Below are positions 1 through 9,179 of a stretch of DNA of 9,179 bases, piece after piece (the first letter of the stretch is position 1; each line of letters begins with the position of its first letter). The position numbers and the translations under genes were made by a program. The stretch is from a virus (Duplodnaviria; Heunggongvirae; Uroviricota; Caudoviricetes). Under the pieces are notes generated by a model. That model saw only the letters and a list, made by a program, of their open reading frames with translations, was not told the origin of the DNA and ran no database searches. The stretch lies in the IMG/VR virus record IMGVR_UViG_2537562190_000019; one strand, 5' to 3'.

Positions 1-256
1 TGTCAGTTATCATCTTCGGTTACGGTTATCGGCAGAACGCCCTGCCGCTGACAAGAGCTTATTTGCCTGACCAATCTACTCCACATGATAGATAACTATC
101 ATTTATAACATTTCATTGATTAGTCTTTATTTTTCACTACGTTACAAATAACAACCCCGTCAAAAACAGCGAAATTAACTACACCATTAACTACACCGTT
201 TCACGAACAATATCGAACAACCACGAACAAAGATCAACACGCTTTAACCGTTATCA

Positions 257-294
257 TTTTCCGGTTAAACGTTAATCAGGCTGGTGGGCTTTAC
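257..294. repeat. 38-bp perfect direct repeat, copy 1 (TTTTCCGGTTAAACGTTAATCAGGCTGGTGGGCTTTAC)
   Basis: Identical 38-mer at 257-294 and 617-654, offset exactly 360 bp. Sequence after each copy is related but degenerate (shared blocks cggta / atgatt / acccg / gggg). Confidence 0.9.
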
Positions 295-374
295 CTGTTC
301 GGTAGGTGTTATGATTATCGTAATACCCGTTAAAGGGGCCGAATACATCACCGGATTTAGGGGATGTTCCCTGC

Positions 375-521
375 CTCCTCAAATTGAGGATTGTGGAAGA
401 ATCAATGGGTTAGTCTTACTTTCCCAACATCCCCCAATGGGGGTTTTCGAAACAATCAATAGCTTAGGCTTACTTCCCCGATCTCCTCAAATTGAGGTTG
501 CCGGAAATATCAATGGGTTAG
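375..521. repeat. Nested imperfect direct repeats between the 38-bp copies (CTCCTCAAATTGAGG at 375-389 and 483-497; ATCAATGGGTTAG-like at 400-412, 455-467, 509-521)
   Basis: Direct reading. The CTCCTCAAATTGAGG motif is itself a small inverted repeat (CCTCA-AAT-TGAGG). The two CTCCTCAAATTGAGG copies are 108 bp apart. Confidence 0.8.
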
Positions 522-575
522 GCCATAGTGCAATTTTGCACTCTGAAACAATATCAACCAGTTACCGCCGCATCC

Positions 576-597
576 CGATATGGGAATCCCCATATCG
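576..597. repeat. Hairpin-forming inverted repeat CGATATGGG-AATC-CCCATATCG
   Basis: Perfect 9-bp stem with a 4-nt loop. A near-identical hairpin occurs 116 bp further on at 692-717. Confidence 0.75.
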
Positions 598-616
598 AGA
601 TTGGATACCTGGCTTT

Positions 617-654
617 TTTTCCGGTTAAACGTTAATCAGGCTGGTGGGCTTTAC
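617..654. repeat. 38-bp perfect direct repeat, copy 2
   Basis: Exact match to 257-294. Confidence 0.9.
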
Positions 655-691
655 ATACCCTTGATCACGGTAATGATGATTCAGGTGCTTA

Positions 692-717
692 CCCGATATG
701 GGGATCACCATATCGGG
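692..717. repeat. Hairpin-forming inverted repeat CCCGATATGG-GGATCA-CCATATCGGG, just 3' of the capsid-homologue stop
   Basis: Perfect 10-bp stem with a 6-nt loop. No U-tract follows on either strand, so it is not a canonical intrinsic terminator. Confidence 0.75.
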
Positions 718-733
718 ATAGATGCCGGAAAAA

Positions 734-1666
734 TCAGCTTTTCGCCAGAACGGTGACGGCCTTATCGAGTTTTTGCCATCCGCAATAGGTGATTGCCCTG
801 AACGCTGTAGCGTCATTCTGGAAAAGGCTAACCGCCCCTGATTCGGTTTTTATTACCGCCTCATCAGTTGGGGTTATAACCGTGGCTTCAACGTTAATAA
901 TCAGCTTTTGAGCGTCTATCAGCATCATGCGATCCGCCTGTTCGCTCACAATTACCGGTATTCTCAAAAGCTCTATCTGCCAGAACTCAGCATCAGTAAG
1001 CTGTAAAGCGTTTTCTACGGGCAAGATTAGCGACGACGTGGAAAGCGTGTTACCGTTCGCTATGTGCTTTTTGAAAAGCTCTATGAAGTTTTCGGCCTCA
1101 TCAGCACCATTAAGCACGCCCTCAGGGGATACGCCAGCCACCTCCTGATCACTGGAAAGAAATTTTTTATCTATTTCTTTCACCGATTCCGATGTGATCA
1201 AGTCTCTGATCGCTGAATTTGTACCAGGGGTGCTAAATTTGATTAGCTCGTTATTCAGCATCACAATAGCGCCAAGTTTGCACAGTTTTAGCGCGCTTTC
1301 GTTTACTTCTCCCTCTTTGACAGGGATTTCTTCGGCTTCTTTAAGCCATTTACTACCCTTGCCTGATATTGACTGCAATTTTGCGCCAAACGGAAGATTA
1401 AGCGCGCTGCTGATTAGCTTGCCTGGTACAGACTGCGAAAAAATATACTCGCCAAGCTCTCTTACTATCGGCTCTGCCACCAGCGACGGCATGTTATCCG
1501 TGTTCATTCCGGCAACAATGGATTTTTCAAGAAATAACGATACTGCCGGATCATTTCTTTTCGTCATCTCTATAGCGTCAGCATGGCTAAATTTACACGA
1601 TGCCAGCACGCTGGCGGCGCGAACTGCTGGCACGCCTTTCATGTTTTTACAGATCATCTTCTTCAT
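734..1666 (-). CDS. HK97-fold major-capsid-protein homologue (capsid-size-redirection-like); true start probably the ATG at 1657
   Basis: C-terminal two-thirds show capsid-like blocks as I recall the HK97 gp5 pattern: PEGVLNGADEAENFIEL (cf. EGQLLNGDGTGDNLEGL), RIPVIVSEQADRMMLIDAQ (cf. GLPVVPTKA...GTFTVGGF), NVEATV (cf. DATVEVS). No N-terminal delta/scaffold region. The GGAGG Shine-Dalgarno directly abuts ATG 1666 but sits 9 nt before ATG 1657. Confidence 0.55.
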   Translation of the reverse strand: MKKMICKNMKGVPAVRAASVLASCKFSHADAIEMTKRNDPAVSLFLEKSIVAGMNTDNMPSLVAEPIVRELGEYIFSQSVPGKLISSALNLPFGAKLQSISGKGSKWLKEAEEIPVKEGEVNESALKLCKLGAIVMLNNELIKFSTPGTNSAIRDLITSESVKEIDKKFLSSDQEVAGVSPEGVLNGADEAENFIELFKKHIANGNTLSTSSLILPVENALQLTDAEFWQIELLRIPVIVSEQADRMMLIDAQKLIINVEATVITPTDEAVIKTESGAVSLFQNDATAFRAITYCGWQKLDKAVTVLAKS

Positions 1667-1808
1667 CCTCCTGGAAGCACGGGTTTAGTGTTTCGTGAAA
1701 ATATGGCATCAGAACAGCGGCGGCCTGTAACCGTATTTCGGTCGACTGCTGCTTGTCGTTCATGATTTCCGTGAGTACATCAATAGGGTCTGTGATGTAT
1801 TCGCTCAT
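1647..1808 (-). CDS. Small hypothetical protein, 53 aa (MSEYITDPIDVLTEIMNDKQQSTEIRLQAAAVLMPYFHETLNPCFQEDEEDDL); below the ORF-track length cutoff
   Basis: ATG at 1808 preceded by GAGGT 8 nt upstream. It fills the gap between the terS-like and capsid-like genes and overlaps the latter's start by a few nt. Hand-translated. Confidence 0.35.
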   Translation of the reverse strand: MSEYITDPIDVLTEIMNDKQQSTEIRLQAAAVLMPYFHETLNPCFQEDEEDDL

Positions 1809-1819
1809 AGTTCGCTACC

Positions 1820-2308
1820 TCAGTGTTTTAAGTCTGTTGGTGGCTTAGGGATGGGGAACCGATTTGAGTAGACACTAGCGGCATTGAGTTTTTTAACCTC
1901 TTTTTTCCCAATGCTGCCGATCTTGCGGTGGGTGAACTGGGCCAGCTTAAACGCGGCATCTAAAGCCAGTTTTGGATCTGTGTCCATGTTGTCAATCAGT
2001 ATCCTGCCCATTGCTTTGATGGGGTCGGGTAGGCCGTTATCCATCATCTCAATGGTGTTAATTGATGCCCGTTCCGGTGTAACTTTTTCGGTAACTTTCT
2101 TTGTAACTTTTTTCGGTTTTGTAACCTGAAAAGTTACATCAGAAGTTACAGCCTTAAGATACTTTTTCACCTCAGGATCGTTGGATAGCTGCCAGCCTTT
2201 AACCCTTGCGGTCTTTTCGCTGTATCCCGCATGTATAGCGGCTTCCGTGGGATTTGCGCCCCTTGATAACGCATCAGCAAACCGCTTTTTTTTGGTCGTT
2301 AATGCCAT
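1820..2308 (-). CDS. terS: Small terminase subunit-like protein (TerS-like / packaging-redirection-like), 162 aa
   Basis: N-terminal signature KKKRFADALSRGANPTEAAIHAGYSEKTARVKGWQLSNDPEVKKYL matches the HTH-type small-terminase pattern (...AT.AAI.AGYS.KTA...). Start reassigned from the GTG at 2449 to the in-frame ATG at 2308, which has GAGG 8 nt upstream; the upstream extension crosses a C9 homopolymer and repeats and is unlikely to be coding. Confidence 0.6.
   Translation of the reverse strand: MALTTKKKRFADALSRGANPTEAAIHAGYSEKTARVKGWQLSNDPEVKKYLKAVTSDVTFQVTKPKKVTKKVTEKVTPERASINTIEMMDNGLPDPIKAMGRILIDNMDTDPKLALDAAFKLAQFTHRKIGSIGKKEVKKLNAASVYSNRFPIPKPPTDLKH
2078..2151. repeat. Cluster of GTAACTTT(T) direct repeats plus inverted AAGTTAC copies inside the 5' third of terS
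   Basis: gtaacttttt 2079-2088, gtaactttc 2091-2099, gtaacttttt 2103-2112, gtaacc 2121-2126; inverted gttac at 2133-2137 and 2145-2149. Two more TGTAACTTTT copies lie upstream of the start at 2332-2354. Confidence 0.8.
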
Positions 2309-2438
2309 GCAAAAACCTCGTTTTGAGGGGGTGTAACTTTTCGTGTAACTTTTTTGAAAAGCAAAATTTTCTACGAATGAGACGGGGGGCGGTGTCCAGG
2401 GTGATCGACTTTCCGGCCGGAACACTCCCCCCCCCATG
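2309..2438 (-). promoter_or_regulatory. terS upstream control region: two TGTAACTTTT repeats, G6 tract, 12-bp perfect palindrome TTCCGGCCGGAA (2411-2422), C9 homopolymer (2427-2435)
   Basis: Direct reading. Palindrome and motif repeats sit where a promoter/operator for the packaging module would be; no -35/-10 could be assigned with confidence. Confidence 0.4.
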
Positions 2439-2600
2439 TCATTGCTCACCGAGTAACGAGATCAGGCCTTCAACTTCATTACTCAGCTTGTTTATTCGTG
2501 TCTCAAGCTCTGCGATCTTTTCCATCAATGGCGCTATGGTGTCTCTTGTTTCCTCGCCAATGGCCTTAATGATGCTTGCCTCGCGTTCTGTGATAGCCAT
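2439..2600 (-). CDS. Small coiled-coil-like hypothetical protein, 53 aa (MAITEREASIIKAIGEETRDTIAPLMEKIAELETRINKLSNEVEGLISLLGEQ); below the ORF-track cutoff
   Basis: ATG at 2600 with GGTGAGG 8 nt upstream; begins 4 nt after the stop of the upstream gene. Hand-translated. Confidence 0.4.
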   Translation of the reverse strand: MAITEREASIIKAIGEETRDTIAPLMEKIAELETRINKLSNEVEGLISLLGEQ

Positions 2601-2603
2601 TTG

Positions 2604-2798
2604 TTATGCCTCACCTGTTGCAATGCCCAGTCTTTCGCGTAACAGCACACGTGCAAGATGACCTATTGTTGGCGTGGCGGCTCTGCCGTAGATGCCAGCT
2701 TCATTCATCCGGCGAATAACATCGAATTGAATTTTTTTAAGCTCGTTTAGGATCTCGTGATCAATCATCACGGTAGCGCTTTGCTTTATCTCTTCCAC
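2604..2798 (-). CDS. Small hypothetical protein, 64 aa, possibly a ribbon-helix-helix-type DNA-binding protein
   Basis: GTG start with AGGAGG 6 nt upstream. N-terminal SATVMIDHEILNELKKI has a beta-strand-then-helix pattern; family unassigned. Confidence 0.5.
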   Translation of the reverse strand: MEEIKQSATVMIDHEILNELKKIQFDVIRRMNEAGIYGRAATPTIGHLARVLLRERLGIATGEA

Positions 2799-2928
2799 TT
2801 TGTTTCCTCCTGATGCTTATCATCTAATAATCAGTATTTTCGATAGATTATAATCAATCAACCATTTTTTAAGATATGAGAGATCGAAAAAAAGCCGGAT
2901 TGCTCCGGCTATGTGTTCACTACTTCGG

Positions 2929-3180
2929 TTATTCTCCAGCGCTTTTAACGTTGATGGTTGTTACCTGTTCCGCTTCGGCAATCTCCCGTTCTGTCAGCGT
3001 GGCAAAGTTTGCCGCCGCTGTGGTCATGAATGCGCTTATCAGTTCGGGATTCTCCTTCGCGTATCCTTCCCGTGTGTGGCGGTCGATGATTTTTATCGCC
3101 ACCCTCAGCCAGTGCTCTGTAAGGTCAATGGCGCGGTTATGTGGTTTCTTCTGATTGTTCAATTTTCCTGATGTGTGCAT
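2929..3180 (-). CDS. Hypothetical protein, 83 aa
   Basis: ORF directly downstream of the iteron region on the operon strand, ATG at 3180 with a weak GAGGG upstream. Two overlapping plus-strand ORFs here are antisense to the operon and were discarded. Confidence 0.45.
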   Translation of the reverse strand: MHTSGKLNNQKKPHNRAIDLTEHWLRVAIKIIDRHTREGYAKENPELISAFMTTAAANFATLTEREIAEAEQVTTINVKSAGE

Positions 3181-3228
3181 TTTTATTTTTACCCTCGTGT
3201 TTAAAAAGTTTTAGGTTGTGGTGCACCT

Positions 3229-3453
3229 CCTCTACCTCTCTACCCAATCATCTTTCAGGTCAGTAATGGCGCGGCTTTCAGATGGGTAGAGGGCTTTCGT
3301 GGCCCTCTACCCATCCTCTACCCGCTCCTCACAAACGACCTTAATCATGGTGGAGGGTGTAGAGGGCTTTTATTTGCCTTCTACCTGCCCCTCTACCCAC
3401 TTATCATATTGAATAATTTATATTTATTTTCTTTAGGTAGAAGAGGTAGAGGG
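3229..3453. repeat. Iteron-type replication origin: at least 6 direct CTCTACC(C) and 4 inverted GGTAGAG(GG) copies flanking an AT-rich stretch (about 3401-3435)
   Basis: Direct copies at 3229-3245 (x2), 3303-3323 (x2), 3378-3398 (x2); inverted copies at 3284-3293, 3359-3366, 3436-3453 (x2); GTAGAGGGCTTT recurs three times. It lies immediately 3' of the primase/helicase gene, the usual position of satellite and plasmid origins. Confidence 0.7.
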
Positions 3454-3466
3454 CTTTTGTCTAAAA

Positions 3467-5221
3467 TTATAAAAACGCGTCGCAATCATCAGTTGTAATT
3501 GCGTTGGTCTGCGTTACTCCCTTAACTCTCCGCGTAATATATTCATGTCCGTAAACTTTTGCCGCTGGCTTCATGGCCTTGCTGAACTCAGCCACGTTTA
3601 GCGGCTTGCTTCTTCCTGCGTATGCCATAAACGCCAGATAGACGCGGTAAAGGCTGTTCCTGGTCGTGTACTTCACTGAATCGCCACCGCCACCCATCAT
3701 CAGGCCGCGCGCTTCCTCCAGAAAATTCAGGAACTGGCAAAACTCAATAACCGGATCCGTCTGTTGCTTTATTGCCAGTGCTTCATCACCGTCGCGCTGT
3801 TCCAGGAGTAAAGCCCGTGCCTTTTCAGGGTCGGCAAAGTTCGCCAGTAATCGGCGGATAATCACAGGGATTTCAGCCGCGACCTTCTCCGGCAAATCCT
3901 TGTCCTTTTCTGCCTCGCTAACGATATTGTCAAAGCGAAAAATCACCCGACGGCGTGACACACCTCCGGCCCGCTCGGTGAATATCATCGGGTTGTTGTT
4001 GGTCGCCAGTACCACCGCCCTTATTACCGTCGTGAATCGCTTCTCATATTTCGGGTTAATTTCGACGGGGTCGCCGCCCGTGATTTTCTTGATGCCCGTT
4101 CCTTCGCCTGTATATTTCGGTTGGTCAGCCAGGACGATAAGACGACTCCCGACAACCTGCGCACGTCCACCAGCATCATCAAGCGATGTCATTTCAGCGC
4201 TTACCGTGTTCTGTTTCCCTGCCAGAAGGCTGGCTATGTGCGTGAATGTACTTTTACCGCTACCGCCGTCTCCGGTGGCCTCAATAAACATCTGCCAGTC
4301 GTACCGGTTCGCCATAATCATGTACAGCGCGGCACATATACGCATCATCTTGCGCGGGTCTTTTCCGGCTGCGTGATCAAGCCATTTGTGAAAGTTTGGC
4401 GCGTTGTCGCGAATGTTCTCCCCAGGTGCTGGTGGCGTGTACTCAATGCCGTTGTGCGTGGTGATCCAGTTCTCCGGCGTGTGCGGGGAAAATTCCCCCG
4501 TTTTCAGGTCAAGCGCACCATTGGCGAACGGCAGCAAATCGCCGGACGGCTCCCCCATTGGTTCGGCAATAACTTTTAACGCTTCAACGGCGTTATTGAT
4601 CACGCGTTTGCTGAAAGTGGCCCTGTGCTCTGAATAGATCGCCACCATTTCGCGGCTAAGTTCCATTGTGCTGACCGGACACCATAACCCGCCGCGCCAT
4701 ACGTGAACGATTTCACTTTCAGGATGTACGCAAACGCCATCAAAGCGATCGGAAAGCAGCTGAGCGCGTTCACTGTCCGCCATCTGCGAAAGTTGCGCCT
4801 TTTGCTTTACCGGAAGCTCAACGACCAGACCTTCAGAAAGATTCTGGCGCTCACGGGCAAGATATTCGCGCCAGTTCTCCACCTTCTGACCGTGCATTCC
4901 TTCGGGGTAAAAATTTGCATCCTGTACACCTGCCGCCGCCAGCTTCTGACCAATCTTTTTGGTCTCCACCAAGTCCAGTTCTCCTGCCTGGTACAGCCTT
5001 ACGCGTTTTTTTCCATCAGGAACAATTTGCAGTGCATCAAGTTCGGCAAGCTGATTTGGCCCAAGCCACACAGGAGGCACATTATCGCCGGATGCGGGGC
5101 CGTCCTGCTCCTGCCACTGTTTTGCATGTGCCCACGCATCACTACCCGCGAAAATAATCACCTCTGTGTCTTTGTGTTTTATTCCGCGTGGCTGTTTTTT
5201 TACGTTCGGTGCCAGTTTCAT
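3467..5221 (-). CDS. Replicative primase/helicase (P4-family primase C-terminal / D5-like SF3 NTPase domain)
   Basis: Walker A GDGGSGKST, Walker-B-like RLIVLADQ, and the P4-family primase C-terminal signature IKKITGGDPVEINPKYEKRFT (cf. LTGGD...F). ATGA overlap with the upstream 99-aa gene. Confidence 0.75.
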   Translation of the reverse strand: MKLAPNVKKQPRGIKHKDTEVIIFAGSDAWAHAKQWQEQDGPASGDNVPPVWLGPNQLAELDALQIVPDGKKRVRLYQAGELDLVETKKIGQKLAAAGVQDANFYPEGMHGQKVENWREYLARERQNLSEGLVVELPVKQKAQLSQMADSERAQLLSDRFDGVCVHPESEIVHVWRGGLWCPVSTMELSREMVAIYSEHRATFSKRVINNAVEALKVIAEPMGEPSGDLLPFANGALDLKTGEFSPHTPENWITTHNGIEYTPPAPGENIRDNAPNFHKWLDHAAGKDPRKMMRICAALYMIMANRYDWQMFIEATGDGGSGKSTFTHIASLLAGKQNTVSAEMTSLDDAGGRAQVVGSRLIVLADQPKYTGEGTGIKKITGGDPVEINPKYEKRFTTVIRAVVLATNNNPMIFTERAGGVSRRRVIFRFDNIVSEAEKDKDLPEKVAAEIPVIIRRLLANFADPEKARALLLEQRDGDEALAIKQQTDPVIEFCQFLNFLEEARGLMMGGGGDSVKYTTRNSLYRVYLAFMAYAGRSKPLNVAEFSKAMKPAAKVYGHEYITRRVKGVTQTNAITTDDCDAFL

Positions 5222-5517
5222 TTCTTACCCCTGAATACGTTAAGCATCTTTTTTATTTCCTGAATATTGGCGCGTGCTTTCTCCCTGCTGGTGGGCACGT
5301 TACGCGGTACAGCCTGCACCAGAGAAAAATCACGATCGAACTGATAAACAGGCATAACGCAATCATATTCGTAGCCTTCACGGCGGTAAGTTACGCGCCG
5401 TTCCTCCACGCCCTTAATCATTACCGTGCCGCCGTACTTATCGCGGTAAATATCCCCGCACATGAATTTAGTGCGAGTTTTGCCGCTGGCAGTTAAGCCA
5501 GGATATTTAAGTTTCAT
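5218..5517 (-). CDS. Hypothetical protein, 99 aa
   Basis: GGAGA Shine-Dalgarno 6 nt upstream of ATG 5517; 4-bp overlap with the primase start suggests translational coupling. Confidence 0.6.
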   Translation of the reverse strand: MKLKYPGLTASGKTRTKFMCGDIYRDKYGGTVMIKGVEERRVTYRREGYEYDCVMPVYQFDRDFSLVQAVPRNVPTSREKARANIQEIKKMLNVFRGKK

Positions 5518-6869: not shown

Positions 6870-7094
6870 TTACACTGCCTTACCTGAATTAATGCGATCC
6901 CGGCTTTTAACCCATTCCATAACCTCGGACAGCAGCCACCCTACAGAACGACCGCCCAGATTAAGACGTGACGGAAAGCGCCCTTTTTTCTCCAGTTCGT
7001 AGCGTGTAGTGCGGCACACTCCTGTTAACTTACGGCATTCATCCTCACGGATTACGCGATCTGATAGTGATTGAAATTGTGTATTTTGATTCAT
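6870..7094 (-). CDS. alpA: AlpA-family phage transcriptional regulator / excisionase-like protein, 74 aa
   Basis: LNLGGRSVGWLLSEVMEWVKSR matches the AlpA signature (...GxRSVGW...E...EW...) and the small HTH size fits. GAGGA lies 9 nt upstream of the ATG. Confidence 0.75.
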   Translation of the reverse strand: MNQNTQFQSLSDRVIREDECRKLTGVCRTTRYELEKKGRFPSRLNLGGRSVGWLLSEVMEWVKSRDRINSGKAV

Positions 7095-7156: not shown

Positions 7157-7189
7157 GTGTGATATCACACTACCAGCACGTGATATCAC
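7157..7189. promoter_or_regulatory. Paired palindromic operators GTGTGATATCACAC (7157-7170) and GTGATATCAC (7180-7189), centres 21 bp apart
   Basis: A perfect 14-bp palindrome and a perfect 10-bp palindrome two helical turns apart; the second overlaps the TGA stop of the 257-aa gene. A possible -10 (TAGAAT, minus strand about 7135-7130) lies just downstream. Confidence 0.55.
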
Positions 7190-7959
7190 TTTTTACGTTT
7201 TTGTTGAGATTCACGCCCCAAATACTTTTGCCATGTCTGCCAATGTGTTTTTGGAAATTCTATCCCTCTGGATGCAGCTATAGAATCAATTAAATCTGCT
7301 ATTTTAGGTAATGATTCCGTGTCCAGGTCTACATCACCCATTTCTGGAATAAGTTTAATTAAAGAGTAAATAACCTCATTCCTTTTTGACGATGCTTTTG
7401 GGCTATCTTCTGTTATCTTCGGGAAGTCTCCCGTATTTTTTATATTATCTAAATCACTAGCCATCACACACAAATAGTTAACATCAAATTCATAACCACC
7501 CTTACAAAAAACATACATGAGATTATCATCACCATACTTATTCGTAAGATGAGAACATTTTATATATTGTCTCATGCTAAATTCGACATCAGCAAAAACA
7601 TATGCCGGAGTATAATAAAACCCTGATAAGCTGCTAACATAATAACATTTGATAGAATTCCCTACAGGACCAATAATGGCACTATCTAAAAATTCAGTGT
7701 CACCAGTTAAACCAACTGTAAAATTACTTCCAAAAACAGCAGATTCATCATTGAAAGGATATTTTATTAATTCTTCCTCATTACAACCATTGATAAAATG
7801 ACATAATGAAAAATTGAATTTTTTAGCATCAATTTTTGGTATATATACAGAAATATTAAGAGCACCTATATATGCGTAATGATAAAGATCTTTTATTGCA
7901 CAGCCTAACTTTTCTGCCGCTTCAGGTAACGGATAATAGAGTCTTTTAGGTAATTTCAT
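7186..7959 (-). CDS. AT-rich hypothetical protein, 257 aa, unassigned family; N-terminal HTH-like segment plus a ~210-aa domain of unknown function; candidate accessory/defence cargo
   Basis: ATGA start/stop overlap with the integrase stop (7956-7959) and AGGTGG upstream. Composition is strikingly AT-rich (roughly one-third G+C by eye) against roughly half for flanking genes. N-terminal LPEAAEKLGCAIKDLYHYAYIGAL resembles excisionase/AlpA-type HTH. Confidence 0.7.
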   Translation of the reverse strand: MKLPKRLYYPLPEAAEKLGCAIKDLYHYAYIGALNISVYIPKIDAKKFNFSLCHFINGCNEEELIKYPFNDESAVFGSNFTVGLTGDTEFLDSAIIGPVGNSIKCYYVSSLSGFYYTPAYVFADVEFSMRQYIKCSHLTNKYGDDNLMYVFCKGGYEFDVNYLCVMASDLDNIKNTGDFPKITEDSPKASSKRNEVIYSLIKLIPEMGDVDLDTESLPKIADLIDSIAASRGIEFPKTHWQTWQKYLGRESQQKRKK

Positions 7960-9179
7960 TTGGCCACCTTCAGCATAACAATATTTTCATGATTTCCAGC
8001 CAGCACATCGAGACGCTCAACCCATAGATTAAGAGCGTCACGTTTTGCATCAAGATAACGGGAGTGATTATAGACTCGTTGCATTCCTGGCAACTGGTGC
8101 GCGGTAAGCTGCTCCACAACGTGCGGTTCCACGCCTAAATCGTTCAGCATCGTTGTAAACGTGTGCCGGATGTCGTGCAACGTCCAGGGGGCTTGATTAA
8201 TGCGTCTGTGTGCCGTTCTTCCGTACTCTGATACGGATGATTGCCCTTTCAGTTCTCCGAGCAATAATCCCGTGTGCCTGTTCTGCTCCACCAGCTTCAT
8301 GACAAACGGCAAGATCGCTTCCGGTATTGGCCTGAATATTGCTACCTTCGTTTTGCTGTGTTCTTTCGGCACGGTCCAGAGCATTTCTTTAAAATCCCAT
8401 TCCTGGACCTCAGAGCGTCTTAGCTCAGTGGTACGACATCCGAAGACAATCAGGAGGCGAATCAGGGCGCTGTAGTACGGTGGGTAAATTTTTTCATCAA
8501 GGGCGCGTAGTAATTCCCCAAGCTCCTTGTTTGTTAGTACGCGCTCGCTTATTTCTGCTTTTTTCCCAACATCACCGACAACCATATCATCAAGAACGTT
8601 GCTGATTGCGTATCGTCGTTTTCGGCAGTACTTAAGCGCCTGTTTGCATACCTGTAGCAAAAATCCGGCTGATACCGGATTACGCTTAGCAAGCTGGTCA
8701 AAACAGGCCAGCCAGTGGCGTAGCTCGCATTTTTCCAGTGGCATAGCGCCAATCTGGCTAATTATGTGTTTATTGATCCGGCTTTTCAGTGATTCGTAGT
8801 CAGTGCGCTTTTCCTTTGCGTACGATTCAAGCCAGTAAGTGAGCGCTTCCTTAACCGTCACGGGGGCTAACGCGTCCTGTACAGCATGATTAAGTTCATA
8901 GCGCGGATTTTTCCCCTCAGCCAGCCAGGCGCGACACTGTGCCGCTTTTTCCCTGGCAGCTTTCAGGCTCAGATCGGGATAATTGCCCAGCCTCAGACGT
9001 TCCGGTGATATCTGCCTACCAGTTCCGGCCCTGTAAGTGAAATACCAGGTTAACAGGCCATTGGTTGAATGCCTTACGCTAAGGTTGCCACCATCATTAA
9101 AAAAGGTGTTTTTTGTGGTTGGTGATCCGCTTAATTTTCGTAAAAGAGTGTCGCTAAGTCTATGAATTGCCCTGCTCAT
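7956..9179 (-). CDS. int: Tyrosine site-specific integrase, P4-like family, 407 aa
   Basis: N-terminal arm-binding-like region (TWYFTYRAGTGRQ...), catalytic signatures CRTTELRR (Arg), LHDIRHTF (HxxR) and VYNHSRYLD (His...Tyr nucleophile). The ORF starts at the last base of the window, so its promoter and any attL/tRNA lie outside. Confidence 0.85.
   Translation of the reverse strand: MSRAIHRLSDTLLRKLSGSPTTKNTFFNDGGNLSVRHSTNGLLTWYFTYRAGTGRQISPERLRLGNYPDLSLKAAREKAAQCRAWLAEGKNPRYELNHAVQDALAPVTVKEALTYWLESYAKEKRTDYESLKSRINKHIISQIGAMPLEKCELRHWLACFDQLAKRNPVSAGFLLQVCKQALKYCRKRRYAISNVLDDMVVGDVGKKAEISERVLTNKELGELLRALDEKIYPPYYSALIRLLIVFGCRTTELRRSEVQEWDFKEMLWTVPKEHSKTKVAIFRPIPEAILPFVMKLVEQNRHTGLLLGELKGQSSVSEYGRTAHRRINQAPWTLHDIRHTFTTMLNDLGVEPHVVEQLTAHQLPGMQRVYNHSRYLDAKRDALNLWVERLDVLAGNHENIVMLKVAK

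Follow-up and report, generated by a model that had tools for sequence, protein, structure and literature searches.

Gram-negative PICIs (Fillol-Salom et al. 2018; SatelliteFinder, de Sousa et al. 2023), of which EcCICFT073 is the prototype, are satellites of about 9-15 kb that combine an integrase, an AlpA regulator, a primase with a downstream origin, and a capsid homologue. Their genes, including those of EcCICFT073, are near-unidirectional, and terL, portal, and tail genes are absent. The island described here, which occupies 9,002 bp and was analyzed within a 9,179-nt window (the whole stretch of DNA under study), resembles them in all of these respects. Integrase, AlpA, primase, capsid gene, and terS have been defined as the five core components of proteobacterial PICIs, with a median size of 9.5 kb vs 9.0 kb for the island (PMC10085698), and 21 of 29 reference Gram-negative PICIs include a capsid gene (PMC10111431). 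EcCICFT073 and the island also share a helper-like cos cutting site adjoined by a different recognition region. They differ, however, in several ways: EcCICFT073 lacks terS and redirects packaging through Rpp bound to phage TerS, its helpers are of the lambda/phi80 type, and its capsid homologue has been described as a relative of lambda gene E, whereas the island encodes a full-length TerS and an HK97/PF05065 capsid homologue, has likely HNH-cos helpers, and places terS ahead of the capsid gene, a variant order noted by de Sousa et al. (PMC10085698).

Other satellites resemble parts of this arrangement. SaPIbov5, a cos SaPI, uses helper phi12, which is, like the island's candidate helper, an HNH-cos phage whose capsid protein has its own scaffold domain. 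Like the island, it combines a helper-type cos with an HK97-fold capsid homologue, Ccm, that is 24% identical to the helper's protein (PMC8569155). Ccm retains an 87-residue delta domain, whereas the island protein has no coiled-coil scaffold. Occupancy of pentons by Ccm and the associated size shift were seen by cryo-EM (PMC8569155), both being hypothetical for the island protein. Unlike the island, SaPIbov5 has no TerS of its own. A terS homologue is also encoded by PmCI172, a PICI of Pasteurella multocida. Like the island, PmCI172 includes a homologue of major capsid proteins, and it makes small capsids (PMC6092414), although it has a different host and a contractile-tailed helper, and its small-capsid gene was never identified. 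In pac SaPIs (SaPI1 and SaPIbov1), a satellite TerS homologue directs the helper TerL onto the satellite's DNA, while Ppi, a further small protein, interferes with the helper TerS (PMC6739421). The island resembles them in having a TerS homologue, while its own second small protein is a homologue of the TerS hairpin with a hypothetical role, and these SaPIs use headful (pac) packaging rather than a cos system.

Capsid-forming PICIs (cf-PICIs, e.g., EcCIEDL933) share with the island an E. coli host (O157), an AlpA and primase backbone, HNH-cos helpers, and their own capsid protein and TerS, but their gene set additionally covers protease, portal, head-tail connectors, HNH, and TerL, and they assemble heads of their own. 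No member of this set (terL, portal, protease, head-tail adaptor/connector, HNH) was matched in the window using Pfam and PHROGs. Helper-embedded PICIs (PMC10111431) sit inside a late gene of a presumed helper prophage, as does a Salmonella sibling of the island (in terL). In the published ones, which have no terS, the targets are lambda-type late genes (gpA/Terminase_1, capsid gene E; PMC10111431), and the island in the window is chromosomal. Finally, P4-like satellites are marked by psu, sid, delta, and epsilon genes alongside an alpha primase. The Psu, Sid, and Delta families had no matches in the window (Pfam, PHROGs), and a P4-like satellite was rejected based on gene content and order, the D5/P4-type primase-helicase domains and AlpA being all that the two share.

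Based on RefSeq flanking genes, the island sits between clpS and cspD. Its features are listed below, using window positions, with (-) for the minus strand:

172..198: att direct repeat of 27 bp, AAATTAACTACACCATTAACTACACCG (repeat analysis, spacing 9,002 bp)
734..1666 (-): capsid-protein homologue, 310 aa (PF05065, PHROG 617/10, AF2, Foldseek)
1647..1808 (-): 53-aa protein with an acidic C-terminal tail (PHROG 641; hhalign)
1820..2308 (-): small terminase TerS, 162 aa from the ATG that is also the RefSeq start (Pfam, PHROG, AF2/structure match)
2079..2149: AAGTTAC array within the linker-coding region of terS (motif count; codon choice)
2333..2351 (-): pair of direct AAGTTAC(AC) repeats with 12-nt spacing, in the gap that separates the cos-like block from the terS start codon
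2363..2435 (-): cos-like block upstream of terS, with a G9 run, then GGACACCGCCCCCCGTCTCA, then GTAGAAAATTTT (homology to a phage cos block)
2439..2798 (-): two small conserved ORFs heading the late module, of 64 aa (2604-2798) and 53 aa (2439-2600)
2893..2910 (-): terminator-like hairpin, then a T-run (consensus match only)
3229..3460: putative replication origin with many GGTAGAGGG/CCCTCTACC copies in both orientations, directly downstream of the primase gene
3467..5221 (-): D5/P4-type primase-helicase, 584 aa (PF08706, PF19263, PF03288; PHROG 864, E 9e-173)
6870..7094 (-): AlpA-family regulator (PF05930, E 1.9e-16)
7956..9179 (-): tyrosine integrase (PHROG 1, E 1e-68; RefSeq annotation)

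The partner copy of the att repeat starts about 9,002 bp from the first, at or just past the window end, and the island is thus about 9.0 kb long. All but one of the RefSeq-annotated island ORFs lie on one strand, and the ORFs are intact. Within the primase, Pfam identified the D5_N, DUF5906, and Pox_D5 domains, and the placement of the putative origin agrees with that of a PICI origin described previously (PMC6092414). The terminator-like hairpin may divide the replication region from the late (packaging) module; terminator-like sites across the scanned region numbered 5 vs 4.3 in shuffles, i.e., no excess. Family matches for the two small ORFs were weak (Pfam, PHROGs), those of the 2439-2600 ORF being to coiled-coil families, and in islands from Salmonella, Hafnia, and Serratia, cos and terS are likewise preceded by small ORFs that are homologous or in an equivalent position. 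Integration at a tRNA or tmRNA was rejected since the window contains neither and the island occupies an intergenic site. Rfam matched no family across the whole window, so that the repeat-rich 257-734 region corresponds to no known RNA.

An initial first-pass annotation had proposed a satellite in which a P4-family primase is paired with AlpA, without large terminase, portal, protease, or tail genes. Both members of this pair were recovered by their Pfam families, and terL, portal, protease, head-tail connector, tail, and lysis families had no match among the other ORFs tested in the window (Pfam, PHROGs). The satellite reading also fits the anatomy of the element, its conservation in other genera, and its tie to one phage family. 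The "minimal" design is not an unusual one, however, as the gene set is exactly the five-component PICI core (PMC10085698). Because all five components (integrase, AlpA, primase plus origin, capsid gene, and terS) are present, the element represents a fresh example of a known PICI kind and no new system. Similarly, the description of the module as TerS plus capsid protein only is right in that there are no other morphogenesis genes, but it overlooked the cos-like site, the repeat arrays, and the 53-aa mimic of the TerS hairpin. Taken together, we estimate a probability of about 75% that the region represents the late module, for packaging and capsid functions, within a canonical ~9.0-kb Gram-negative PICI, seemingly tailored to the BP-4795/Stx1/Stx2c/1717 type of HNH-cos lambdoid prophages.

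The product of the 1820-2308 gene, previously considered TerS-like, is confirmed as such by both profile searches and structure comparison. Pfam PF03592 (Terminase_2) matched the N-terminal HTH only (E 2.7e-10, 41.5 bits for a cutoff of 26.1), PHROG 641 "terminase small subunit" matched over the whole profile (1-156 of 162, E 3.7e-43), and annotated terS genes located directly upstream of terL in Stx-converting phages encode proteins 46% identical over 96% of the length. An AF2 model built from 12 island-type sequences and of moderate confidence (pLDDT 69.5) had small terminases as all of its best 11 PDB matches, the top one being the SF6 G1P DNA-binding domain (4zc3, TM 0.87, rmsd 1.5 A). The predicted layout includes an HTH (residues 5-56), a low-confidence and probably disordered linker (57-83, pLDDT below 50), a helical hairpin (96-126), and a basic tail, i.e., both features of PF03592 (SPP1/SF6-type) small terminases, an N-terminal HTH and a predicted helical core. 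Identity to the Stx1 phage TerS is unevenly distributed, with 58% in the HTH, 17% in the linker, 72% in the hairpin, and 39% in the tail. Separately, an Rpp-family identity was rejected: phmmer against all PDB chains (E up to 1) returned weak small-terminase matches and a few unrelated proteins, with no Rpp (RppA structure, PMC6739421) among them.

The 53-aa protein starts 11 nt past the terS stop and overlaps the start of the capsid gene. It matched positions 89-125 of the same TerS profile, PHROG 641 (E 4e-7), and aligned to the TerS alignment with a probability of 85% (hhalign, E 6e-6), indicating homology to the TerS helical hairpin (residues ~90-131), which it mimics. A word-index homologue search recovered only close E. 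coli relatives, and distant members were collected from syntenic loci; the protein is kept at the same place in the Hafnia, Serratia, and Salmonella islands. This extra hairpin-only protein suggests that the make-up of TerS oligomers is manipulated, and it raises the alternative that island TerS does not replace helper TerS but forms mixed oligomers with it via the near-identical hairpin, i.e., an Rpp-like heterocomplex which would lose affinity for the phage cos and gain affinity for the island cos. The high identity of the two hairpins and the precedent of Rpp, which acts in complex with phage TerS (PMC6739421), are both consistent with this scenario. We nonetheless consider it unlikely, as island TerS is full-length with its own C-terminal tail and could act alone, no Rpp chain was matched in the PDB search, and SaPI TerS operates by replacement (PMC6739421).

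The region upstream of terS provides candidate packaging sites. Over 68 nt, the cos-like block matches the sequence between HNH and terS in the Stx1 phage at 78% identity, and it is conserved in the Hafnia, Serratia, and Salmonella islands. The record of the Stx1 phage Lys8385Vzw is linearized within the homologous block, and PhageTerm analysis of this phage identified 3' cohesive ends CGCCCCCCCT (PMC7946995). The island counterpart of this 10-nt helper cohesive end, CGCCCCCCGT at 2391-2382, is one base apart from it, and the Hafnia and Serratia copies differ more. The phage cos mapping is from a single PhageTerm report (PMC7946995).

Next to this block, the AAGTTAC(AC) repeats at 2333..2351 stand where the helper-type phage has GTTAAC repeats. 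The same motif recurs within terS as two inverted copies (2131-2137 and 2143-2149), then three direct ones (2103-2109, 2091-2097, and 2079-2085) at 12-nt spacing, with a partial GTTAC at about 2121-2125. Overall, AAGTTAC occurs 8 times in the window vs 0.97 expected, a count reached in none of 200 shuffles, and 7 of the 8 matches fall in 2079-2351. The codon choice underlying the array is kept in the E. coli, Hafnia, and Salmonella islands, where the first two Val-Thr pairs are encoded by GTA-ACT and later ones by GTT-ACA/C, which preserves the orientation of the motif within the low-confidence linker of TerS. We propose that these repeats are TerS-binding sites and, judging from these sequence features, redirection of packaging toward the island is well supported.

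The same comparisons point to HNH-cos lambdoid prophages of the BP-4795/Stx1/Stx2c/1717 type as the likely helpers. These phages carry HNH, TerS, TerL, an S78-protease-capsid fusion, and portal, and candidate helper genomes are 48-62 kb long. In Salmonella, the sibling island borders on codon 88 of a terL 85% identical to that of the Stx1 phage, and the interrupted terL is followed by a protease-capsid gene 77% identical to the one of the same phage; one junction of this insertion is on the contig, and the other junction and the integrase are off it. Across 5426 complete E. coli genomes, the phage cos-terS segment was present in 1253. A chimeric query combining the island module and the phage segment matched just as many genomes (1253) and records (1258) but at 226 additional places, so that genomes with the island module appear to be a subset of helper-bearing ones, a reading based on equal totals rather than a per-genome match. 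This co-occurrence is also confounded by lineage, since most carriers are STEC clones. Along with the common cos block, it gives indirect backing to a putative helper-dependent induction, replication, and high-frequency transfer of the island.

The first-pass annotation had further proposed that the 310-aa protein is an HK97-fold capsid homologue without the N-terminal scaffold, and had named structure prediction as a possible refutation. The prediction instead yielded an HK97-like fold with high confidence (AF2, pLDDT 90.7, pTM 0.87), for which Foldseek recovered HK97-fold capsid proteins (E 1e-11 to 1e-8, probability 1.0), including those of Bxb1, Muddy, 80alpha/SaPI1, the Ccm-containing SaPIbov5 procapsid, and HK97, along with encapsulins. 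An encapsulin identity was rejected given the satellite setting beside terS and cos, with no cargo gene. At the sequence level, the protein (307 aa when using the RefSeq start at 1657) matched Pfam PF05065 Phage_capsid above the curated cutoff (E 1.2e-6) and PHROGs 617 and 10 "major head protein", and phmmer against PDB gave no match. The S78-protease/coiled-coil/capsid fusion of the Stx1 phage, 645 aa long, aligns through its residues 291-633 with residues 10-307 of the island protein (24% identity, E 1e-18). As this alignment begins at residue 291 of the helper-type protein, neither the protease nor the coiled-coil scaffold is present in the island protein, the missing scaffold having been proposed before, and it keeps a short helical N-terminal subdomain common to the helper-type protein. 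Compared to Ccm, homology to an HK97-fold helper capsid protein is thus present, and the N-terminal delta (scaffold) domain, which in Ccm-type proteins is removed by the helper protease, is absent. Identity to E. coli and Salmonella phages is 24-25% and the top matches, from Burkholderia and Rhizobium phages, reach 26-27%; the capsid sequence alone is therefore no pointer to an Stx-type helper, since Burkholderia and Salmonella phages (25-27%) are at least as close as Stx phages (24%).

By analogy with Ccm, this protein may redirect capsid size. A sizeable though lesser share of our confidence goes to a version of the same satellite-helper relationship in which heads are not resized: concatemers, with about 5-6 units between used cos sites, would be packaged into full-size heads, and the capsid homologue would poison helper shells, stabilize shells, or have no role. 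Six copies of 9.0 kb make 54 kb, inside the size range of the candidate helpers, which fits as readily as a small head, and the island protein itself carries no scaffold domain. In EcCICFT073, an island with a marker in place of the capsid homologue c1499 was still transferred, and deletion of c1499 did not restore normal lambda plaque formation, with packaged DNA all phage-sized and heads phage-sized as well (PMC6092414). However, c1499 is described as a homologue of lambda capsid gene E, i.e., another type than the PF05065/HK97 protein, while Ccm, which shows the same 24% identity to its helper's protein, and the PmCI172 capsid homologue are tied to small capsids (PMC8569155, PMC6092414). 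The island capsid gene is also intact, encodes a confidently predicted fold, and is 45-51% identical from genus to genus, where the mini-ORF and terS invariably accompany it, which counts against this alternative.

The late module is found beyond this island. The cos, TerS, ~50-aa ORF, and capsid gene close ~9-kb int-alpA islands in Hafnia, where an AAA_25 replicase stands in place of the primase, and in Serratia, and the architecture is common to four genera at 45-58% protein identity. Window positions 734-3103 recur at 94-98% identity in E. coli islands whose remaining similarity to the window is limited to a short stretch of ~460 bp. An IMG/VR search returned only near-identical E. coli copies, and a survey of species-representative genomes with a narrower capsid-family alignment recovered only Serratia aquatilis, the first capsid-family alignment having been too divergent for pattern design; cross-species distribution is thus poorly sampled in these data.

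The spread of the late module among different island backbones bears on whether it serves chiefly in host defense, blocking helper packaging or assembly while island transfer is inefficient. Helper interference is common among PICIs (PMC6092414), and both the hairpin mimic and the scaffold-less capsid subunit would be plausible dominant-negative poisons. We nevertheless regard a mainly defensive role as improbable: in addition to this spread, defense alone would give no purpose to a helper-type cos with its dedicated repeats next to terS, the island has an integrase, AlpA, and its own replicon, and PADLOC found no defense-family matches among the eight ORFs submitted (the 257-aa ORF, TerS, the 53-aa protein, the capsid homologue, and four small ORFs).

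A degenerating remnant derived from a prophage or cf-PICI, functionless after losing terL, portal, and protease, is more improbable still, to the point that we give it very little weight. A capsid gene and terS also occur in the cf-PICIs of E. coli O157, which likewise exploit HNH-cos phages and whose gene order is capsid, protease, portal, connectors, hnh, terS, terL (bioRxiv 10.1101/2022.09.08.507074); in addition, the mini-ORF is missing from one E. coli variant locus that includes HNH, TerS, and a capsid protein of 281 aa. Yet no simple deletion in the cf-PICI order would give an island end consisting of terS, mini-ORF, and capsid gene, the ORFs are all intact, the architecture recurs in four genera at the identities given above, and the capsid and TerS trees of PICIs and cf-PICIs separate almost perfectly (PMC10085698). 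A cf-PICI remnant was thus rejected based on both gene content and gene order.

For the PICI reading that we prefer, known PICI biology suggests that helper induction would lead to excision of the island and its replication from its own primase and origin. The resulting concatemers would bear a putative cos cutting site, homologous in sequence to that of the helper. Island TerS may then read its private AAGTTAC repeats via the diverged HTH, in place of the phage GTTAAC repeats, while its hairpin stays helper-like, and would recruit the helper TerL and HNH to cut and package island DNA. SaPI TerS and the Rpp/cosB swap in EcCICFT073 serve as models for this step (PMC6739421, PMC6092414). The 53-aa hairpin mimic would probably join or poison TerS oligomers, thereby biasing packaging to the island, and the scaffold-less HK97-fold protein probably co-assembles with the scaffold-bearing helper capsid protein to change the geometry of the shell, in the manner of SaPIbov5 Ccm. 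We tentatively extend this to a broader scenario, which as a whole we consider rather doubtful. The island would be a member of an uncharacterized cos-type PICI sub-family specific to STEC HNH-cos lambdoid prophages, including Stx1- and Stx2c-converting ones, and would use a three-part device: a helper-type cos with private TerS-binding repeats in the terS linker codons; a 53-aa hairpin copy that poisons or remodels the helper TerS ring, i.e., a new class of packaging interference; and a scaffold-less capsid subunit.

PICIs with terS and a capsid homologue have already been catalogued in the thousands, and the basic finding is in this respect ordinary. The 53-aa hairpin mimic and the binding-site-like repeats in terS codons are, however, concrete candidates for a packaging-specificity switch. 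Likewise, the three-gene cassette and a helper with a scaffold-bearing capsid protein offer a clean system for a Ccm-like mechanism, c1499 of EcCICFT073 having no known phenotype. Finally, the helper family indicated by these data is specific and of medical relevance: the HNH-cos lambdoid prophages include many Stx1- and Stx2c-converting phages. A satellite competing with Stx phages for packaging could affect the release and spread of toxin phages in STEC and, if the three-part device is real, Stx-phage yield and Stx transduction would be lowered in island carriers.

The window, which is E. coli DNA, holds an island of ~9.0 kb with the anatomy of a PICI, a phage satellite. It is bounded by a 27-bp direct repeat (172-198, with a second copy 9,002 bp away), and in E. 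coli strain OkiPb01700 the neighbours of this DNA are clpS and cspD. All substantial ORFs of the window except one are carried by the minus strand, and neither tRNA genes nor Rfam matches were found in the window.

Features of the island, from the integrase end to the capsid end
7956-9179, minus strand, integrase, its start overlapped by the stop of the 257-aa ORF
7186-7959, minus strand, 257-aa ORF without a family match
6870-7094, minus strand, AlpA
between AlpA and the DUF4222 protein, an Icd-like repressor and several small ORFs with PHROG matches only
5218-5517, DUF4222 protein, just before the primase-helicase
3467-5221, minus strand, D5/P4-type primase-helicase
3229-3460, iteron field, after the primase-helicase in transcription order
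between the iteron field and the TerS-like gene, three small ORFs
1820-2308, minus strand, TerS-like gene
1647-1808, minus strand, 53-aa ORF
734-1666, minus strand, capsid-like gene (310 aa)

Every feature of Gram-negative PICIs that can be checked on sequence (PMC10085698; PMC6092414) is found in the island, and the PICI definition itself includes terS together with a capsid homologue (PMC10085698). The island does not fit the definitions of cf-PICIs, P4-like satellites or Rpp, the packaging redirector of EcCICFT073. The slot between integrase and alpA is low in GC (31-33% vs ~47% elsewhere); its 257-aa ORF (7186-7959) has no match in Pfam, PHROG or PADLOC, and unrelated ORFs of 198-230 aa occupy the slot in related Serratia and Hafnia islands. 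Accessory or anti-phage cargo has been suggested for PICIs, and this slot may carry such cargo. At the opposite end, the ~480 bp that separate the stop codon of the capsid gene from the att repeat (257-734) are apparently non-coding and have no Rfam match. Here two identical 38-nt direct copies (257-294 and 617-654) frame a 54-nt tandem repeat (2.8 copies, 374-523) with a CCTCAAATTGAGG-type hairpin in every unit, and there is also a 28-nt repeat pair (574-601 and 692-719); the Hafnia island has a 193-aa gene there instead.

The first-pass annotation had read the late module, i.e., the packaging and capsid end of the island, as a TerS-like protein and an HK97-type capsid homologue lacking the scaffold/delta region, with no other morphogenesis genes, and each part of this reading was borne out. 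For TerS (1820-2308), profiles, phage homologues and predicted structure agree. The protein exceeds the Pfam cutoff for PF03592, matches PHROG 641 over the full profile (E 4e-43), and is 46% identical over 96% of its length to the annotated TerS encoded directly upstream of terL in Stx-converting phages. The helix-turn-helix (HTH) of its AF2 model (pLDDT 69.5) fits onto the DNA-binding domain of SF6 G1P (TM 0.87, rmsd 1.5 A), and all 11 of the 11 best PDB matches of the model are small terminases. Identity to the phage TerS is uneven, at 58% in the HTH, 17% in the linker, 72% in the helical hairpin and 39% in the tail, as would be expected had DNA specificity diverged and protein-protein contacts been preserved.

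The 310-aa protein scores above the PF05065 cutoff, and its AF2 model (pLDDT 90.7, pTM 0.87) matches HK97-fold capsids at E 1e-11 to 1e-8, including those of Bxb1, 80alpha/SaPI1, HK97, encapsulins and the SaPIbov5 procapsid containing the capsid redirection protein Ccm. In the 645-aa capsid precursor of Stx1 phage, an S78 protease and a coiled-coil region accompany the capsid domain, and the island protein aligns to residues 291-633 only (24% identity, E 1e-18), hence lacking protease and scaffold; both proteins share a short helical subdomain at the N-terminal side of this region. No morphogenesis-family match was obtained among the other ORFs tested. An exhaustive profile search recovered full-length relatives (315-332 aa) that fall into about a dozen clusters at 50% identity, past which matches shade into ordinary phage capsid proteins, many of them protease-fused.

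The likely helper family is that of the HNH-cos lambdoid prophages of STEC, on four independent lines of evidence: the best phage matches, the uneven TerS identity given above, co-occurrence in genomes and a Salmonella insertion. This group includes BP-4795, phages 2851 and 1717, Stx1a-, Stx2c- and some Stx2a-converting phages, and PPompW, with a late region ordered as HNH, TerS, TerL, S78-protease-capsid fusion and portal, and the island TerS and the capsid homologue both find their best E. coli phage matches within it. Directly upstream of terS, window positions 2363-2435 are 78% identical over 68 nt to the HNH-terS block of these phages, and the islands of Hafnia, Serratia and Salmonella retain this cos-like block as well. 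For Stx1 phage Lys8385Vzw, the break point of the linear GenBank record falls within the homologous block (...GGACACCGCCCCCCCT / CTCACGCAGAG...), and its authors report from PhageTerm that packaging is of the cos type and that the 3' cohesive ends are CGCCCCCCCT (PMC7946995). The equivalent in the window is CGCCCCCCGT (2391-2382), while the cohesive-end sequence of the Salmonella island is exactly that of the phage. In PPompW-type prophages (LC567818, LC567822, LC567824, LC567828 and others), the cos-block match begins 13 nt later than in other phages; the IS110-family element ISEc20 is annotated beneath it, and seems to be placed immediately next to the cos-region G-run.

Of 5426 complete E. 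coli genomes, 1253 contain the phage cos-terS segment, and a chimeric query of island module and phage segment returned the same totals (1253 genomes, 1258 records) with 226 more places. Genomes with the island module thus appear to be a subset of helper-bearing ones, as judged from equal totals rather than a per-genome comparison and with the island-helper association confounded by lineage. Among the carriers listed, 60 of 60 had at least two places. On a Salmonella contig (AAINIL010000071.1, region 1-4800), a sibling island has an SSB gene, two small ORFs, the exact cos core, TerS, a 51-aa ORF and a 334-aa capsid homologue. It stops ~270 bp short of codon 88 of a prophage terL; this terL shares 85% identity with that of Stx1 phage, and the protease-capsid gene after it shares 77%. 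Codons 1-87 of terL are missing from the contig, and the integrase end of the island lies off it. The arrangement resembles a helper-embedded insertion, here into a terminase gene of HK97 type. Helper-embedded layouts are known from other PICIs, and this apparent target is not among the lambda-type sites listed for them (PMC10111431).

Between cutting site and terS, the phage has five GTTAAC repeats where the island has AAGTTAC instead. The window contains eight AAGTTAC copies vs 0.97 expected, a count reached in 0 of 200 shuffles, and seven lie within 2079-2351 at a spacing of 12 nt throughout: two direct copies before terS, then two inverted and three direct copies inside it. The in-gene copies encode Val-Thr repeats of the TerS linker (residues 57-83), which is probably disordered (AF2 pLDDT below 50). 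Across E. coli, Hafnia and Salmonella, GTA-ACT (inverted motif) invariably encodes the first two Val-Thr pairs and GTT-ACA/C (direct) the later ones, a codon pattern that speaks for constraint at the level of DNA, not of protein. We infer that these island-specific repeats are putative TerS-binding sites, the island counterpart of cosB.

The island TerS would bind its own repeats and recruit helper TerL and HNH, leading to cleavage at the shared cos site and packaging of island DNA. A mixed TerS ring, as for Rpp, is a plausible second rival given the 72%-identical hairpin; Rpp and the island TerS have no sequence relationship. By analogy with Ccm, which is likewise 24% identical to its helper capsid protein (PMC8569155), the scaffold-less subunit may co-assemble with scaffold-bearing helper capsid protein and alter shell geometry. 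It is this capsid step that the main rival concerns: concatemers could instead be packaged in phage-sized heads, a possibility that we hold at somewhat below even odds. EcCICFT073 DNA enters phage-sized heads and no phenotype was found for its capsid homologue: an island with a marker in place of this gene is still transferred, and deletion of the gene does not return lambda plaque formation to normal (PMC6092414). At 9.0 kb each, six island copies would amount to a full ~54-kb head. PmCI172, which also encodes a capsid homologue, forms small capsids (PMC6092414). Given the EcCICFT073 data and the six-copy fit, capsid-size redirection is plausible but far from established.

The 53-aa ORF starts 11 nt past the terS stop, overlaps the capsid gene start, and keeps its position in all four genera. 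It matches positions 89-125 of the TerS PHROG (E 4e-7) and the helical hairpin of the TerS family alignment (hhalign probability 85%, E 6e-6), lacks the HTH and has an acidic C-terminal tail. As the simplest hypothesis, it would be incorporated into TerS oligomers or cap them, and it could either poison helper TerS (Ppi-like in function) or tune the island's own. Two small ORFs right before the cos block (2439-2798, minus strand) encode 64 and 53 aa, the latter with weak coiled-coil-family matches only; the islands of Salmonella, Hafnia and Serratia also have small ORFs here, and these are conserved late-module components. That a small helical protein before cos could be a CpmB-like internal scaffold is pure speculation.

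In the literature searched, we found no description of a link between this PICI sub-family and Stx-type HNH-cos phages, of a classical (non-capsid-forming) PICI that carries both a full-length TerS of its own and a cos cutting site of helper type, of a hairpin-mimic protein, or of repeats embedded in terS codons; all four are leads, not results.

The same order of small ORFs, cos-like block, TerS, ~50-aa ORF overlapping the next gene, and capsid homologue (311-334 aa) ends ~9-kb int-alpA islands in three other settings: a Hafnia island whose replication gene encodes an AAA_25 protein in place of the primase, a Serratia backbone with a D5-type primase, and the Salmonella contig. A variant locus on two E. 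coli contigs (L011, 6206-8281, and L012) encodes a 162-aa HNH protein, a TerS of 62% identity and a shorter capsid homologue (281 aa), with no 50-aa ORF between the latter two; AAGTTAC repeats lie upstream of its terS, and no cos core was seen within 175 nt. The locus adjoins what appears to be a type III secretion gene cluster (secretin, HrpJ, FHIPEP). Another IMG/VR record (UViG_2695420855_000011) carries a late-module copy (1235-3642), ~4 kb unrelated to the window and, at the contig edge, the 3' end of a second capsid-homologue gene (7812-8050), and may represent two islands in tandem. Module proteins of the Hafnia, Serratia and Salmonella relatives are 45-58% identical to the E. coli copies, with every ORF intact. 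Readings of the island as a remnant, or as purely a defence element, are unlikely in view of this conservation, the cos site and the lack of PADLOC hits; the late module is a conserved unit, not debris. Window positions 734-3103 are 94-98% identical in E. coli islands whose only other similarity to the window is a short stretch of ~460 bp, which suggests that the late module moves as a cassette.
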